This document shows, one piece after another, positions 10,279-51,020 of a stretch of 64,000 nucleotides of DNA. The first letter of the stretch is position 1. Every line of letters begins with the position of its first letter. Under the pieces are notes generated by a model. That model had not been told where the DNA came from and did not search any database. It was given only the letters and a program-made list of their open reading frames with translations. The position numbers and the translations under genes were made by a program. Source of the stretch: Dictyostelium discoideum (taxonomy: Eukaryota); the NCBI GenBank assembly GCA_000004695.1, contig CM000150.2, positions 4,288,001-4,352,000 of the forward strand, read 5' to 3'.

Positions 10279-10313
10279 ATTCTAATCATATGATTTTTAA
10301 AATCGATAGTTTG

Positions 10314-10387
10314 TATTCAGAGCGGGAATCGAACCCACGACCTAATCCGTGTTAAGGATTCGTGATAACCGACTACACCATCCGAAC
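10314..10387 (-). tRNA. tRNA-Val (anticodon AAC).
   Basis: The reverse complement GTTCGGATGGTGTAGTCGGTTATCACGAATCCTTAACACGGATTAGGTCGTGGGTTCGATTCCCGCTCTGAATA folds as a cloverleaf. It has a D-arm GTGTAGTCGGTTATCAC, the anticodon loop CTTAACAC, and a T-arm GTGGG-TTCGATT-CCCGC. It aligns base-for-base with the metazoan tRNA-Val-AAC layout. It is identical to the copies at 13392 and 50908. Confidence 0.85.
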
Positions 10388-13356: not shown

Positions 13357-13391
13357 ACGGTCTTACAATCATTAACTTTAAAAGTTAGTTG

Positions 13392-13465
13392 TATTCAGAG
13401 CGGGAATCGAACCCACGACCTAATCCGTGTTAAGGATTCGTGATAACCGACTACACCATCCGAAC
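13392..13465 (-). tRNA. tRNA-Val (anticodon AAC), second copy.
   Basis: Sequence identical to the copy at 10314..10387. Confidence 0.85.
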
Positions 13466-28334: not shown

Positions 28335-30020
28335 ATGGGCATCGATAATAAAAAGATAGTTGATGAATTAAATGAATCAACATCATCATCATCGTCATCA
28401 TCATCGTCAACCTCAATAAAACATGTTATTGATAAAGTTTTAATAAGATCAACAAACACAACAACAATATCACCAAATTTAAAATCTTCAAAGAAACCCA
28501 AAAAAACTATTTTGGATAATAAAAAAGATTCAGAAGATTTATTTGAACAACCAGACCAATTAGAAACAAATGTTTCCTCAACAATTTCATATTTAATTGA
28601 ATCAAAGGTAAATTATTAAATTAATAAATTATTAAATTCATAATTTCTAATAATAATTTTTTTTTTAAAAAAAAAAAAAAAAAAGAAAAAACTATTTAAT
28701 CAAGTTCAAATTGAATTAGATAAATCATCAAATAAAAAAATTGGTATTATAAATTTACAAAATGATATTAAAACATTAGAGATTGAAAAAGAGGAAGCTA
28801 TTAAACGAATTAAAGATGCAGAAGATGGTATAATCAATAGAATTGAAAAGACAGTTTCATTCGATAGAGAATTAAGATCAAGATTATCATCAATCGAGAG
28901 TGTAATTAATATAATTGAATATTTTGAACATTACAATCACCTATTACAACAATATCAACAAGAGATTAAAAGTCAACAATTTATATCAGCAACCAACACA
29001 TTCATTAAAATGTCTGATTGGTTCAATCAATCAAACAATCAACCCTATGAATTATCAATGATTCTATCAGCACCAACTCAACAACCAAGAATTATACCAT
29101 CAATTAAAGATCAATTAAAAAAAAGAAAGAATCAATTAAAATCAACATTATTAGAATCTTTTACAAATTCAATTATTATAACTTCAAATTTTGAAATTCA
29201 ATTATTTCAAATTGAAAATAATAATAAAAAATATCAATCATCATCATCTTCATCACAATCTTATACAGTAGATTTAATTCAATCATTAGAATTATTAGGT
29301 TTATTTAATCATACAATTACTTCATTTACATCTACTTTATTTCAATCATTTTTACAACCAATTATAAAGAAATTAAATTCATTAGTTCAAGATGATAATT
29401 ATTTTATTAATAAAATAAATAAACAACAACAACAACAAAGAAACCTATATAAGGAAGAAGAAATTGATAATGGTGAATTAATTTGTTTTAAATTTTGTGA
29501 AAATGATGATAATAATAATAATAATAATATAGGGAAAATAATAACTATTCCAATGATTTATGAGTTTATAATCAAATTATTTGAATTTTTAAAAAGAAAT
29601 TTATTTGGATCGTCAAATGAAGAAATTATTAAAAAATTTGGACAAGAGATTTGGAGTGATCTATCTCAATGTATATTGGATGAATTATTAAAATATAGAA
29701 TACCAAAAGATATAAATCAATTAAATCAATATCATTCAACTATAAAAAATTCAACAATTGATTTTGAATCAAAAATTACGAATGATATTTTATTTTTAAC
29801 AAATAATAATAATATTATCAATTCATCATTATCATCATCATCGTCATCATCAAAAATTATAAAAACCAATCAATTAACAGAATTTGTAAATAATATTGAA
29901 TTCCATTATTCTGAAAGAAAAAGAATGTTACTTTTATCAAAAGCTAGAGAAATTATATTAAAAGATAGATATCAATCAATTCAATCAAATGATTCAATTT
30001 TATTTTCAAATTGTAATATA

Positions 30021-30116
<96 letters not shown>

Positions 30117-31082
30117 TCAATTTGCACAATTCAAGGATATTATTTCGAAAATAGATTAATATTAGAATCAACTAATTCATTATTATCATTATGTATTTCA
30201 ACATTAAAAGAATCAAAAAATGATAGTAATATATCATTTCAAAGTTGTAGAGATATTTTTGACATTTATCAAGCAATCTATTTAAAACATCATATTTCTA
30301 AATTAGAAAAAGTACCAACTTTAGCATGTTTATTTTATAATAGTTGTTTATTCTTTTCTCATTGCTTTTTAATTTTATCAATTGAAAATAATAATAATAA
30401 TAATAATAATAATGATAATAATAATAAAAATGAAATATTTACATTCATTGATTTTTCAAATAAATTTAAAGAAATTGGTAATATATTTTTTAGTAAATAT
30501 ATTAGAGAACAATTGAAATGGATATTATCATTTTTAGAGAATACGGAATTTTCAAATCGTTTAGAGAATACTAAAGATCAATTAGTGTTTAGTAAAATTC
30601 AAAATAATTTCACAAATATGAATAATGAATTAAATAGATTATCATGTATTTGGAAGGACGTTTTCCCAAGAGAAGATTATTTTGAATTAATTTCAAAATT
30701 CTCTGAATCAATCATAGCAACCATTATAAAGATGATTTTAAAATTACAAAATATTGAAATGGTAGAAACTCAAAAATTATCTGAATTAATATCTTCACTA
30801 TATCCAGTTTTCATTAGATTTTTCATTTTCAATGGTGAATCTGAAGATTTACATAAGAATAGAATGAAATTAGTTAAAAGTTGGAAAAAGTTTTGGCAAA
30901 TTAAAATGGTATTAGAATTACCATTAAGTGAAATAGTTGCACTCTATAATAAAGGTCATCTAAATAAATTATCAAATAATGAATTAAGATTATTAATCTT
31001 AAGTATTTTTGATGATTTTGATTTAAAAACTCAATTCTTATCACAATTAAATAAACAAATTCAACAACAATCTAAACAATAA
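28335..31082 (+). CDS. zw10: ZW10 homolog, a kinetochore and RZZ/NRZ-complex protein. Two exons: join(28335..28607,28686..31082).
   Basis: The segment GQEIWSDLSQCILDELLKYRIPKDINQLNQYHSTIKNSTIDFESKI aligns with human ZW10 [45 protein letters not shown]. The C-terminal segments also align. A GTAAAT donor is at 28608. The acceptor AG at 28684-85 keeps the frame. Confidence 0.7.
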
Positions 31083-31398: not shown

Positions 31399-33235
<1,837 letters not shown>

Positions 33236-43256: not shown

Positions 43257-43994
43257 AAAAAGAGAAATCTCTCTATTAATAAACTAAAATAAATAAATTA
43301 AAATAGTAATAATAATAATAAATAGACATACATTAAAACTTAAATTACGAATAATTAATTCATTTGCTTTTAAATTATCATTTTCGACAGCATATAAAAC
43401 TGATTTACCATTATTTTGTTTATTTTTAGTTAATTTTGTAACTACTTGTTTTAAATTTTCTTGATTTTCACAAACGATTCTAATTGCATCATTTGAATGT
43501 GGAATTGAATAAACTGCTTTAATAGTATCTTTCTTTAAACTAAGGAAATTTGAAACAAATACTTTCTCTGCAACTAAATTATTTGCAATTACTGAAAATT
43601 CTTTCTTTGTATTATATTGTTTAACTATTGGTTCTTCTGGTGTAGTGGTAGTAGTAGTAGTAGTTGCAGTTGTAGTATCTTTTGAATCTTTTGAATCTTT
43701 TGAATCTTTTGAATCTTTTGAATCTTTCTTTGATAATTTCTCTTTTGCAATAGAAACATGAATAATTTTACTTTTTAATTGTTTATTATTTTTTTCTTTA
43801 ATTGCTTTTTCAGCATGTTCAGCTAATGCATACCAAACGTATGCAATACCACTACAAACTTTTTCACCCTTTTCATTTTGTTTTGTAACTATAAAACATC
43901 TTTTTAATGGACCAATATCTGAAAAGAAATTTTCAAGATCTTCATTGGTTGTATCTGGTGTTAAACCTTTTACAAAAACTTGTTTATTATTCAT
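41080..43994 (-). CDS. Nucleolar four-RRM protein, Nop4/RBM28-like. Three exons: complement(join(41080..42596,42665..43187,43332..43994)).
   Basis: RRM1 (VFVKGLTPDTTNEDLENFFSDIGPLKRCFIV), RRM2 (GFAFLTFKERESSEKV), an acidic D/E stretch, RRM3 (GKAFVKYHEQDDARRAV), RRM4 (SKGFAFIECSTHQGALE) and a basic C-terminus. The donors GTATGT 43331 and GTAAGT 42664 and the acceptors were phase-checked. Confidence 0.75.
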
Positions 43995-44328
43995 TATTAT
44001 TGATTTGATTTGATTTAATTTTGATTAATAATAATTATAATACTAATAATAAAAATAAAAACAATCGATAATTGGAATGAAAAAAAAAAAAAAATTAAAA
44101 AACGAAGCTTTCGTCGTGAATTTTATTTTTATTTTTTTTAATTTTAATTTTTTTTTATTTTTTATTTTTAATTTTTTTTTGTGTGAAAAAACGATGGGGA
44201 TTTTTTTATTTTTTATTTTTCCAACTTTTTTTTTTTTTTTTCCAACTTTTTTTTTTCCAAACAAATTTTATTATAAATTTGATTTGATTTTTTTTATCTT
44301 CTTTTTTTTTATTTTTTTTTTTTTATTT

Positions 44329-46911
44329 TTAAAAGAAATCTTCATAATCTTCATCTTTTGTTACGAGTGCATTTGGTTCGTTGTCATCATCATCATTGTC
44401 ATTAAATTTAATGGTTGAAGATGGTGGTATTGGTTGAGATTTTGAATTAATTGATGGTGATTTTGGTTTTGAAATTGGAATATTATCATCATCATCATCA
44501 TCTGAACTATCTATATTTTTTTTAACATGTGGATTAAAACTATCATCATCTGATTCTTCATCTTTAAATTTAACTGGTTTAGATTTTGGTTTTGAAATTT
44601 CTGTTGTTTGCTTTTTTACAATTGGTGGCATTATTGTTGTAGTTGTATTAATTTTTGGTGAAGATGATAAAGGAATTGGGTTCATCTTTGGTGAAGAAGA
44701 AGAAGAAGAGTTTGGTGACATTGGAGTAATTTTTGGTGAAGATGATAAAGGAATTGAATTCATTTTTGGTGATGATGACGGTTTTGGTGATAATGATGAT
44801 GTTGTTTGAGTTGAAGTTGGTGAATATGATAATTTTGGTGAGGGAGAAGAAGATTTAATTGGTGGTGATTTCTTTGTTACAGGTTTTTTAATTTCTTCAT
44901 CGTAATCAATATCTTTTGCAACTAAAGGGTTAAAATCATCTTCATCAGAATCATCATTAAATTTAATATTTGATGGTTTTTTATTATTATTATTACTATT
45001 ATTTACAAAACTATTATTTTTAAAGGCATCATCATCATCATCATCATCATCAAATTTAACTTCACTATTGCCAAACGGATTAAAATCATCTAAAGTTGAT
45101 GTATTTACTGATGATTTTTTATTACTATTTATTGTTGCCGTTGCTTTTGATGTCGATGGTGGTGGTGGTGTTGAAGTAACCTTTTTATCATCATCTTTTG
45201 GTTTAGATTGTGATGGTGAGGATTGACTTGAATTTGATGATGGTTTTTGTTGTGTAGAGGTTGTAGATGGAGATGTGGCAATTTTTGCTATTGATGGTTG
45301 TGGTTGTGATGATGTAGTGGAAGTAATTTTTTGTGATTGTTTTTGAGTTGTTGGTGGCGGTTTTTGTTGTGTAGTTTGTTGTTTCTTTTGTGATTTTGTT
45401 GGAGTTTTAGCTGAATAGAAATCATCTTCTTCTTTTGAAACCCAAGGATTATTATCACCATCATCATCGTCATCATCACTTCCAAATTTATCATTAAATT
45501 GTTGTTGTTGTTTATTTCCACCAGTAATAATATTCTTTAAGAAAGTAGTTTTTGAAGTTTTTTCACCATAGAAATCATCATCATCATATCCACCTGCAAC
45601 AAATTCATCAACACTTGATAATACTTTTGGCATTGCTGCAACTACTGATTTATTTTGTTGTATTTGTTTTTGCTGCTGCTGTTGTTGTTCTTGTTGTTGT
45701 TGTTGTTGTTGTTGCTGTTGTATTTGTTGTGAAGTTGACAAATTTGGTTCAGATTTTGAAAATAATCTTGAAAAGAAAGAACCTGATGAAGAAGTACTTG
45801 GTTGTGGTTGTTGTGGTGGTGATGATGAATTTGGTTTTGGTGTTGGTGATACTTGTGCAGGTGTTGGAGTTAGTTGTGATGGTATTGGTTGTGGTAATGG
45901 TATTGGTTGTGGTAATGGTTGATGTGGTTGCTGTATTTGTTGTGGTGGTTGTTGTTTTTGTTGTGTAATTCTCTTAATATGATTATTATAATCAGATTCT
46001 TTTAACATTATTGATAATTCATCTTTTGAAGATTGTAATTCAATTTTATTTCTTTCCAATTGTTGTATTAGTGATTTTCTTTGAATCTCTAGGAATGGTA
46101 TATTAAAGAATCTAACGATGTTTTGTAAACCATATGCATTTAACATTGAAGCTTCAATATGGGTGACATTATCCCTTGAATTGATTAATGTATCTATATC
46201 AGCATAAGTTACAATCGAATTCTTATCTTGAATATTATTATAAATTCCAATTGGATTTCTATCACGAAAGTTTGAAATTATTAAAATGAATTTATCAATT
46301 GGTACTTTATTAAACTCCTTTTCAATATATTTGAATGTCCATCGCTTTGATGGATCCATCATAAATATTACAGCATTAACATTTTTATATACATTAATGG
46401 TTTTTGAATCTAATCCACCAATTTTAAAACTACCTTTACCTTTAAATTTATTCATATCTGTTAATAATTTTGGATCGAATATATCTTCATTATTATTATT
46501 ATCATCATCATCATCATCATCATCAAAAAATGATTCATCAATTTTTTCATTATCATTATCATTATTATTATTATTTGATCTTTGTTGTGATTTATTTGAT
46601 GTTTTTAATGTGGTTGATGTTTTATTACTACTACTACTATTAGTGTTTGCAACATCTACTATATCCCAAATTTCAACATCTACAATATCATCTGTGTCTA
46701 TAAATATAATAATATTAATTAAAAAATGTTCATTCATATGAACTATTTATTATAAATAATAAATACAAACTTTTATAATCCCAATTAATATGTGATATTT
46801 GTATTTCTGGTGTTGGTGTATATAATTCTTTAAATGGTAATCCTTGAAGTCTATTAAATAATGATGTTTTGCCTGTATTTCTATCACCTTTAATAATAAA
46901 TTTCACTGTGA

Positions 46912-46986
<75 letters not shown>

Positions 46987-47222
46987 GTTATTATTATTAT
47001 TATTATTATTGTTGTTGTTGTTGTTATTATTTTTGATTAATAAAAAAAAAAAAAAAAGGAACATTGTATTAATATAAATTATTATTTCTTTATTATCATT
47101 ATTATTATTATTATTATAATTTAATTTTCGATTTGAAATTATTTACAATAATATTTAATTGATTTATTATTTAATTTCATTTTTAATTCAGGTTTCATTA
47201 TAGAAACATCTGAAGGTTTCAT
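44329..47222 (-). CDS. RABL6 (Rab-like protein 6/Parf) homolog. Three exons: complement(join(44329..46697,46771..46905,47147..47222)).
   Basis: [43 protein letters not shown]...TDDIVDVEIWDIVD aligns with human RABL6 [80 protein letters not shown] aligns with FFNIPFLQLQRETLLRQLETN. A long S/T/P/Q-rich and acidic tail follows. Exon 1 is MKPSDVSIMKPELKMKLNNKSIKYY. Intron 2 is an (AAT)n microsatellite. Confidence 0.75.
46914..47030. repeat. (TTA)n/(TTG)n microsatellite that forms the body of RABL6 intron 46906..47146.
   Basis: It reads as (AAT)n on the coding strand. It has TAA in all frames. Confidence 0.85.
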
Positions 47223-47300
47223 TTTTTATTTTATTTTATTTTATTTTTATTTTTATTTTTATTTGATGTATTAGTTTAATAGAAAATATGGGAATGAAAG

Positions 47301-47342
<42 letters not shown>

Positions 47343-47566
47343 TTTTGAAAATTTTTTTATTTTTCTTATATTTAATTTTTTATTTTTATATTTTTTATTT
47401 TTTTATTTTTATATTTTTTTTTGATATTTACAATGAAAGATCGTTCCACATTTTTAAAGTTTAAAATATCTAAAATTGATTATTATTTAAAAAATACCTA
47501 CAATTAAAATGGATGAAAATGATGAATCAGGCAATGAATCGGATGAACAAAGTATTTTTATTAATT

Positions 47567-47601
<35 letters not shown>

Positions 47602-47967
47602 CTGAATAGAGATATACTATTTTGGATTAATGACAAAAAAAAAAATATATATATTGGAGAAGTATTATATATAGAAATAATAAATATAAAAAAAAAAAAA
47701 CTAAAGAGAAAAAAAATATGGAAAGTTAAATATTTTTATAAAATTAATATCTTTATTATTTTTCCTATTACCAAAAAAGCATAAAAAAATAAGAAGCACA
47801 CAATTTTAGTAATTGATTTGTTTTATAAAAATAAAGATCACTAAAAATAAAATCAAAATATAACTCTTTTTTTTTTTTTTTTTTTATTATTATTTTATTA
47901 TTATAATTATTATCATTAATTATTTTTTATTATTTGAATAAAAATTTTTTATAAATTTATTTTTAGT

Positions 47968-47998
<31 letters not shown>

Positions 47999-48074
47999 TT
48001 TATAGTGGCAGTTATTTCAAAAGAAATGTTTAATATTTTTTTTTTTTATTTTTAAATTTCATTTGTTATATTTT

Positions 48075-49602
48075 TTATAGTTTTTTTGGATTTGACCAAA
48101 TATATAATAATTTATCATTACCACCAGAAATTAAGTATTTTGAATCGGGGGACCAAGCAATACTATTAACTTTTGCATGGTTATTACCTAAATGAATGGA
48201 ATCTATTAAATTACCATTTGAGAGATTAAAAAATCCAATAACATTTGTAGTTTGATTAACACCAGCAAATAAAGTACAATCAGGTGAAATTGAAATTATC
48301 TCTATAACACCAATTTCTGATGTAATTGAATATGTACATTCAGGATCAACTTCTAATTTATAATTTACATTTAAATTCCATAATCTAATACTACCATCTT
48401 TTGATGATGTTATAATTTTCAAACCATCTTTTGAAAAATCTATTGAATAAATACATGTCTTTTTATTTAAAATTAGTATAAATTTTATTTTATAATAATA
48501 ATCAATAATTAACTAATTAATAATAACAACATACTTTATAACCAGTTAAAGACATAACTCTTTTACATTCATTAACAGTACCATCTTTCTTTTTAATACA
48601 TTCATAAATTTTAACTTCAGAACTAAAAGAGGCAATAGCAAAGAATCTACCACATTGAGTCATAGCAGCCATATAGTTTTTAATTTGACCATTATTTATT
48701 GTTTGAATGATTTGACCTTTGAGATTAAATATTTTTAAGATTGTATCATCACCACTACATGTTAAAATATAAGGTGATTGAGAACTTGAACAAATTGATT
48801 TAATTCTTGATTTTATCTCTAAATTAACTGAAAATCCATCTTCATATGATTTACCAGTTTGTAAACTTTTCTATAGAATAATAAATTAAAATAAATTAAA
48901 ATTAAAATTTATATAAATTATTAATATTAAAATTAAAATACCTACTTGATCTAAAATATTAAAAGAAACTAATTTTTGAGATTCATTTAAAGTTGCATAA
49001 AGAGTTTTATTACCCCAAGAAATACAAGTTGCATTATCGAATGGAAGTTGAAGATTAAATGATTGTGGTACTTTTGAATTGATTAAACTATCAAATAAAT
49101 ACATTCTGATTAACCTTTCAGTACCACAGAATGATAAATATTTACCATCTTCACTAAATTTAATACAATCTATAACATCACCACCTCTAAAAACTTTAAA
49201 AAATAATTTATGTTCTTGAATTGTTAGTTGTGGTTGTTGTGATATAGAGATTGGGTTTGGTGATGATGATTCTGTATTATTAACTGTTGTTGTTGGTGGT
49301 GGTGGGGATGGAATTGGTGTATCAATATGTTGTTTTTGTTGATTTGATTTTGTTGTATTAGTATTACTAGTAGTTACTGTTGATTGTAATGTTGGAGAAG
49401 GATTCTTCTTTTTATTTTTTTTGTTTGATAATGATGAAGTTGGTGGTGATGATGATGTGGCAGTTACTGTTGTTGTAGGTTTTTTAAAACTTGAAATTAT
49501 AAAAGATACTGTTACAACTAAAAGTAAAATTGGTATTGTTATTAAATATACATTATTTTCAAACTTTAATTTAACAAATTTGATTATTTCATCAAATTCC
49601 AT
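48075..49602 (-). CDS. WD40-repeat protein with an N-terminal transmembrane anchor (TBL2-like). Three exons: complement(join(48075..48458,48535..48870,48946..49602)).
   Basis: The N-terminal hydrophobic segment VYLITIPILLLVVTVSFIISSF is followed by a T/S/P-rich linker and WD repeats (FSEDGKYLSFCG, DFSKDGLKIITSSKDGSIRLWN, AWSPDSKYLISGGNDKLLYIW). The donors GTAGGT 48945 and GTATGT 48534 and the acceptors were phase-checked. Confidence 0.65.
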
Positions 49603-50907: not shown

Positions 50908-50981
50908 GTTCGGATGGTGTAGTCGGTTATCACGAATCCTTAACACGGATTAGGTCGTGGGTTCGATTCCCGCTCTGAATA
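50908..50981 (+). tRNA. tRNA-Val (anticodon AAC), third copy.
   Basis: Sequence identical to the two minus-strand copies. Confidence 0.85.
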
Positions 50982-51020
50982 CAAACAAACAGTTTTTAGA
51001 TATTGATGAATAGAATCGCA

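Follow-up and report, generated by a model that had tools for sequence, protein, structure and literature searches.

The gene for a RABL6 homologue, encoded on the minus strand of a 64,000-nucleotide (nt) stretch of the Dictyostelium discoideum genome (contig CM000150.2, positions 4,288,001 to 4,352,000; hereafter the window, within which all coordinates are given), is predicted to contain one intron that carries a long (AAT)n microsatellite and another that begins with GTTTGT. This raises the question of whether both introns are placed correctly, and whether the repeat and the unusual donor say anything about the splicing of the gene. Our analysis favours, with a probability of about 0.85, an ordinary RABL6 orthologue with two ancient phase-1 introns, of which intron 1 appears to have been inflated by AAT triplets carried as a neutral passenger, and intron 2 appears to have a drifted donor. 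The features of the gene are as follows.

RABL6 gene: 47222..44329, minus strand, three exons (47222..47147, 46905..46771 and 46697..44329)
Exon 1: 47147..47222, minus strand, 76 nt, 25 codons plus 1 nt from the ATG, encoding MKPSDVSIMKPELKMKLNNKSIKYY
Intron 1: 46906..47146, minus strand, 241 nt, phase 1, GTAAAT...TTCACAG, GC content 8%, splitting a Leu codon as T/TG
Exon 2: 46771..46905, minus strand, 135 nt, opening with the Leu of the split codon and encoding the P-loop (G1)
Intron 2: 46698..46770, minus strand, 73 nt, phase 1, GTTTGT...TTTATAG, GC content 11%, splitting an Asn codon as A/AC
Exon 3: 44329..46697, minus strand, 2369 nt including the TAA stop

Gene structure and RABL6 orthology

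Read on the minus strand, the ATG lies at 47222, two codons downstream of an in-frame TAA, and the TAA stop occupies 44331-44329. Assembly of the three exons from the window gave a coding sequence of 2580 nt in a single frame, that is, a clean open reading frame (ORF) of 859 amino acids (aa), in which exon 3 supplies the remainder of the GTPase-like domain, including a low-complexity insert, and then a long acidic, Q/S/P-rich disordered tail. Both introns have GT-AG termini; their removal restores one ORF, and read-through of either meets stop codons. When the window was searched by tblastn with the Acytostelium subglobosum orthologue, three high-scoring segment pairs were obtained, corresponding to the three exons. 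Exon 1 was recovered on its own (47225..47142, 46% identity, E = 0.009), and the segment pair of exon 2 showed 75% identity to Acytostelium, with 56-69% identity to animal RABL6. Exon 1 aligns with residues 14-38 of four dictyostelid orthologues, and both junctions are gap-free in the orthologue alignments (KY-x-(L/V)K at the first and NW-x-YKNTDDIVDVE at the second, where the window reads NWDYK-N-TDDIVDVEIWD).

Other GT/AG pairs at intron 2, involving positions 46766, 46692 and 46680, were read through and rejected, as they led to a stop or to the loss of conserved KNTDDIVD residues. An alternative acceptor in the DTDDIV region, which the original prediction had named as a danger to its model, fails for the same reason: the other AGs would delete residues that are conserved in the orthologue alignments. 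Non-canonical or U12-type introns were also considered, and neither intron has GC-AG or AT-AC termini or an (A/G)TATCC donor. An Rfam scan of the window detected no small nucleolar RNA or other RNA family in either intron, its only matches being three tRNA genes elsewhere.

The orthologous proteins of four species spanning the major dictyostelid groups (annotated as 'Rab GTPase domain-containing protein') were mapped back to their genomic loci. Polysphondylium violaceum, Tieghemostelium lacteum, Cavenderia fasciculata and A. subglobosum have exactly two introns each, both in phase 1 and in the same codons as in the window, the first splitting a Leu/Val codon after K-Y-x and the second splitting the Asn codon of YK-N-TDD; the third exon is single and uninterrupted in these orthologues too. 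Their intron 1 lengths were 72, 61, 76 and 83 nt, respectively, with a microsatellite in none, and their intron 2 lengths were 67, 82, 67 and 83 nt, with the donors GTAGGT, GTAGGT, GTAAAT and GTAGGG, respectively. The window gene therefore shares with them a structure of three exons with two phase-1 introns at identical codons, a domain identity of 43-54% and, in the case of P. violaceum, the same flanking genes, whereas it differs in three respects: a 241-nt intron 1 with (AAT)n in place of a repeat-free one of 61-83 nt, T instead of A (4/4 orthologues) at position +3 of the intron 2 donor, and the lack of an N-terminal extension beginning with MGNENGR. One non-dictyostelid homologue locus was intronless and looks like a transcript assembly, making it uninformative on intron positions outside dictyostelids.

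Judged by these comparisons, both introns are ancient and of the U2-type GT-AG class, and the three-exon model is, as far as homology can tell, correct to the base. The model had been put forward in the original prediction, and it is upheld here by the gap-free junctions, the three tblastn segments and the same intron codons and phase in four dictyostelids; the coordinates and the lengths of 241 and 73 nt that it had assigned to the introns were exact. Its title, however, made the microsatellite the second intron with the GTTTGT donor, which is a confusion of the two: the array lies in the first intron, the donor of which is GTAAAT, and GTTTGT is the donor of the second.

Regarding the identity of the protein, which had likewise been correctly named as a RABL6 homologue, a single-sequence search with the first 314 aa yielded 7 protein matches, including A. 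subglobosum (48% identity) and UniRef 'Rab-like protein 6', and a profile built from the 7 matches retrieved 47 proteins at E <= 1e-10. Among matches named Rab-like protein 6, the lowest E value was 1e-42 for the single sequence and 1e-190 for the profile. The profile matches included named RABL6 proteins of Patiria (sea star), Hydra, Hydractinia, Caenorhabditis and the fungus Podila; a UniRef/NCBI 'Rab-like protein 6' from Cacopsylla was also matched, and the coverage of the RABL6 matches was 93-99%. In the profile search, identities to the other dictyostelid orthologues were 54% (P. violaceum), 53% (T. lacteum) and 43% (C. fasciculata). General GTPase models gave weak matches in the P-loop region, both of which were below threshold (Pfam Roc, 24.9 bits with a gathering cut-off of 27; Ras, 16.3 bits with a cut-off of 21.6), and Rab7 in the PDB was a marginal match (E = 0.007). 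The P-loop GDRNTGKT (G1, GxxxxGK[ST]) is present, with G32, G37, K38 and T39 invariant in the alignment, and four residues, W81, D82, V84 and D85, do not vary among the amoebozoan, animal and fungal sequences, where W-D-(I/V)-V-D replaces DxxGQ. A switch II of the form W-D-(I/V)-V-D in place of DxxGQ is characteristic of RABL6.

The window protein resembles animal and fungal RABL6 (Parf, RBEL1, C9orf86) in its Ras-like N-terminal domain (314 aa, of which at least 93% is covered at 32-38% identity), in the G1 motif, WD(I/V)VD and an N-x-RD G4-like motif, in the conserved NIPFL..QR helix, and in the long acidic disordered C-terminal tail with NP(L/M/W)V. Unlike them, it has a low-complexity insert of ~70 aa (N, S and D runs) after WDIVD, as well as poly-Q and five D-D-F-N-P-x-V-like motifs in its tail. 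The tail begins after residue ~310, comprises ~550 aa and is rich in Q, S, P and D, and in the alignment its DNNPWVSKE segment stands opposite NPLV and NPMVAGF in the orthologues (the NP(L/M/W)V motif). Gene order is also shared: a WD40-repeat gene, RABL6 and an RRM gene lie on one strand (43800-49602, minus strand) both here and in P. violaceum. Taken as sequence evidence, these features make RABL6 orthology well supported. The roles of RABL6 are poorly understood even in model taxa (PMC13393502), and the existence of a tractable amoebal orthologue is of minor value.

The five acidic tail motifs, encoded at 44329-45500 on the minus strand, read DNNPWVSKE, DDFNPFGNSE, DDFNPLVAKD, DSFNPHVKKN and NEPNALVTKD. 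NPF occurs in one of them, and it is the first that lines up with the NP(L/M)V motif, of which animal RABL6 has a single copy. They may represent a repeated short linear binding motif.

AAT array of intron 1 and its genomic background

Tandem Repeats Finder (TRF) and inspection of the sequence resolved the following parts of intron 1.

Main microsatellite: 46912..47031, minus strand, 120 nt, (AAC)5(AAT)~35 on the gene strand, TRF period 3
T16 tract: 47042..47057, minus strand, within intron 1, 136 nt upstream of the 3' splice site
Second array: 47078..47121, minus strand, imperfect (AAT)~15 in the 5' half of intron 1, TRF period 3, 78% matches

TRF reported the main array as (ATT)40 at 46912-47031 with 96% matches and a score of 198, including a perfect ATT run of 75 nt at 46912-46986, and this array ends 6 nt before the acceptor AG of intron 1. 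The original prediction had described the intron as composed 'almost entirely' of AAT. The repeat is real, but its share is just 60-68%: TRF arrays account for 164 of 241 nt (68%), strict triplet runs for 144 of 241 nt (60%), and among the remainder are the T16 tract and unique AT-rich sequence. Without both arrays, intron 1 would be ~97 nt long. By comparison, the 17,300 introns of D. discoideum are 89% AT and have a median length of 103 nt, a mean of 143 nt and a standard deviation of 158 nt (PMC2483917). Because the four other dictyostelids have a repeat-free intron 1 of 61-83 nt, and because the array-free remainder in the window (~97 nt) is close to the published median, sequence comparison shows the array to be a lineage-specific expansion, by which an old intron grew from 61-83 nt to 241 nt. 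On this reading, the two conserved RABL6 introns offer a clean example of lineage-specific microsatellite inflation.

The commonest branch motif in D. discoideum is ACTAAT, and polyT is most frequent at 15-40 nt from the acceptor (PMC2483917). Intron 1 holds one internal GT and one internal AG, the latter 182 nt from the 3' end, so that its final 182 nt are free of AG up to the acceptor, and it contains 41 ATAAT sites. The T16 tract is probably the original polypyrimidine region, which the repeat would have displaced.

By the standard of random sequence, the repeat of intron 1 far exceeds chance, whereas by that of this genome it does not stand out. The GC content is 15-30% throughout the window, and TRF arrays make up 19.5% of its 64 kb, with 28 period-3 arrays consisting of A and T only, among which that of intron 1 is the eighth longest, and 10 perfect AAT/ATT runs of at least 60 nt. 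Base composition, repeat coverage and the dictyostelid relatives of the protein together point to a D. discoideum-type (group 4) social amoeba. As a homology-verified control for repeat-filled introns, we reconstructed a second gene of the window.

VPS26 gene: 32952..31399, minus strand, with introns at 32726..32442 (285 nt) and 31940..31719 (222 nt), donors GTATGT and GTAAGT, respectively

The spliced VPS26 product aligns gap-free across both junctions to VPS26B in the PDB (2r51, E = 4e-124). Its 285-nt intron contains a 193-nt (AAT)n array at 32503-32695, and its 222-nt intron a perfect array of 116 nt at 31723-31838, which ends 4 nt before the acceptor AAAAAG. For the genome as a whole, simple repeats have been reported to make up 11% of the sequence, with 1,436 repeats of more than 100 bp (PMC3188802), and the repeat coverage of 14.3% was the highest among 719 eukaryotes surveyed (PMC6387519), with trinucleotide repeats predominating (PMC9234386). 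The intron 1 array has the features of this repeat-rich non-coding DNA, namely an intronic A/T-only triplet repeat of more than 100 bp, and nothing in the window sets it apart.

Because there are 28 such arrays in the window, both VPS26 introns are filled with (AAT)n and the published figures (simple repeats at 11-14% of the genome; PMC3188802, PMC6387519) agree, the array is unremarkable, and AAT-filled introns are routine for this genome. The unusual character that had been implied for the intron is thus not borne out: the locus is already known in kind, and the oddities flagged in it belong to the background of a repeat-rich genome with ~20% GC. Furthermore, because the VPS26 intron at 31940..31719 has the same anatomy, placement of a repeat next to the acceptor seems to be generally tolerated. 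The acceptor-abutting AAT arrays of RABL6 and VPS26 suggest that the Dictyostelium spliceosome tolerates AAUAAU tracts as a branch region or makes use of them.

The same class of repeat also occurs as coding sequence in a neighbouring gene, where a perfect (AAT)32 array at 30021-30116 encodes poly-Asn within a 690-aa ORF (29010-31082, plus strand).

GTTTGT donor of intron 2 and splicing of the two introns

GTTTGT is the donor of the 73-nt intron 2, which contains no microsatellite and looks ordinary at its 3' end, with TTAAT at 25 and 21 nt and a T6 run ending 23 nt from it. Because no alternative donor fits the conserved protein, GTTTGT is taken to be a real donor, and because the orthologous donors all have A at +3, it is taken to be derived. 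The hexamer keeps G+1, U+2, G+5 and U+6. The donors checked by homology in the window (n = 4) are GTAAGT, GTATGT, GTAAAT and GTTTGT, and GTA-type donors (GTAAGT, GTATGT, GTAAAT, GTAGGT) were found in most candidate gaps of a rough ORF-continuity census of the window, which is too noisy for frequencies, as several gaps appear on both strands. The donor had earlier been called non-consensus; it is off-consensus, but the intron is still a canonical GT-AG one. From sequence comparison, we conclude that GTTTGT is a real, derived and weak donor of a U2-type intron and a single drifted site, with nothing to suggest more.

The same hexamer is known from another amoebozoan lineage, as GUUUGU is the consensus donor in Entamoeba, where it occurs in 88-90% of introns, and it may pair better with the U6 ACAGA box, according to the authors of that preprint (bioRxiv 10.1101/2022.06.08.495308). 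In Entamoeba, however, the motif is genome-wide and the U1 snRNA (small nuclear RNA) has co-evolved with it (ACAAAC), whereas the window has one derived donor among GTA-type donors. No U1 gene was found by the Rfam scan of the window, and nothing suggests an altered U1.

At the other end of intron 2, two in-frame acceptors stand in tandem, 6 nt apart (TATAG/ACACAG/, 46692-46698, minus strand), and splicing to the distal one would cost KNTDD two of its conserved residues.

While the anatomy of the introns is read directly from the sequence, we infer the steps by which they would have arisen and are spliced. Intron 1 would ancestrally have been ~60-100 nt long, and its AAT triplets would have grown, presumably by replication slippage, until it reached 241 nt. 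Since (AAT)n contains no GT and no AG, cryptic splice sites would not arise from such an expansion. A single substitution separates each AATAAT from ACTAAT, and the array would thus offer numerous near-consensus branch sites, suitably spaced from the AG. It would be tolerated between the old T-tract and the acceptor, with the first AG after the array being used, and would represent a neutral passenger, not a functional element. In intron 2, a GTAGGT-like donor would have drifted to GTTTGT, with weaker U1 pairing at +3 and +4, and the intron is most likely still constitutively spliced.

Several points weigh against this reading. What supports the junctions is homology and the comparison of gene structures, and the orthologue models are themselves genome annotations; in addition, the exact 859-aa product was absent from the protein collection searched. 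Single-sequence and profile searches of that collection returned no group-4 Dictyostelium orthologue, though more distant dictyostelids were matched. CTAAT-type branch sites are missing from intron 1, which has repeated AATAAT instead, and the distance of 136 nt between its T-tract and the acceptor is atypical. The literature searched gave no Dictyostelium-wide frequency of GTTTGT donors. Finally, the 13 N-terminal residues of the other dictyostelids are missing, which leaves the true 5' end slightly uncertain.

Among the competing explanations, that of inefficient or regulated splicing fares best, although we regard it as unlikely. It holds that the weak GTTTGT donor, the displaced T-tract and the tandem acceptors cause intron retention with a premature stop, or a 2-aa-shorter isoform, and that repeat length tunes RABL6. 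Both donors of the gene indeed match CAG/GTAAGT at just 5/9 positions, and +3 is A in 4/4 orthologous intron 2 donors but T in the window, where most census gaps offer a GTA-type donor against the homology-supported GTTTGT. The T16 tract lies 136 nt from the acceptor, compared to the usual 15-40 nt (PMC2483917), but the housekeeping gene VPS26 has the same repeat-against-acceptor anatomy in its intron at 31940..31719. As for intron 2, a second in-frame AG is available 6 nt downstream, at 46692, but the isoform made with it would lose conserved residues, KNTDD being conserved from amoebae to insects, and the 3' end of the intron looks ordinary (TTAAT at 21-25 nt and T6 at 23 nt from the AG). 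We therefore prefer constitutive splicing of two ancient introns, one of them inflated.

The suggestion of the original prediction that microsatellite introns may affect splicing efficiency is speculative. A very improbable proposal is that the array, lying between the old polypyrimidine tract and the acceptor, acts as tandem near-consensus branch sites (AAUAAU compared with ACUAAU), and that its slippage-prone length and the weak GUUUGU donor tune splicing efficiency, and through it RABL6 dosage, from strain to strain. If this were true, array length would be a heritable, tunable expression knob and not junk.

5' end of the gene and minor observations

The four dictyostelid orthologues begin with MGNENGR(I/M)L..EE, 13 residues before the Met aligned with Met1 of the window protein, and this start fits, in our own reading, the loose PROSITE N-myristoylation pattern. 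It is conceivable, though improbable, that a different or additional 5' exon encodes this conserved N-terminus and that the start of exon 1 is wrong. No MGNEN-like peptide was found in any minus-strand frame of 47140-48200, a range that reaches the stop codon at the end of the WD40 gene upstream, and the upstream exon replacing exon 1, of which the original prediction had warned, did not appear in the 850 nt up to that gene. The nearest candidate is ATGTGGAACGA at 47451-47441, which resembles ATGGGTAACGA of the orthologues at 9/11 positions. Its ORF, however, stops after 7 codons (MWNDLSL*), and the phase of its sole donor, GTAAAT, does not fit the one acceptor that could be used. A match of this quality is close to what chance would give: ~0.05 such 11-mers were expected in the 850-nt stretch, and window-wide 10 were observed against 7.7 expected. 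ATGTGGAACGA may be what is left of the ancestral start, or else an upstream ORF of 7 codons. Since exon 1 has its own homology to the orthologues, with a conserved 3' junction, introns 1 and 2 would be unaffected. Most likely, as judged from the orthologue alignments, the N-terminal extension was lost in this lineage.

The last alternative, that the AAT tract is coding (poly-asparagine) and not intronic, has almost no chance of being right and is rejected on frame and orthologue evidence: one frame of the gene strand does read AAT/AAC (Asn), an ORF with an ATG start, MFLFFFFLLIKN(n)SQ*, spans 47064..46903 and poly-N is common in this genome (e.g. the ORF at 29010-31082), but the former ORF is out of frame with exon 2 with its TGA overlapping the exon 2 start, the frame of exon 2 reads a run of TAA stops through the tract, the segment is intron-like at 8% GC, and the orthologues have no poly-N at this point but an intron of 61-83 nt.

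Some minor observations were made at the 5' end and in other parts of the window. Several protist homologues also start with MG. A small, GC-richer intergenic island at 47509-47560 (plus strand) opens a plus-strand ORF, MDENDESGNESDEQS..., which runs into a poly-T tract; the island may represent a promoter element or a mini-exon, or be due to chance. The three tRNA genes detected by Rfam are all tRNA-Val(AAC), located at 10313-10387 (minus strand), 13391-13465 (minus strand) and 50908-50982 (plus strand), with an equal score of 57.9 bits each.

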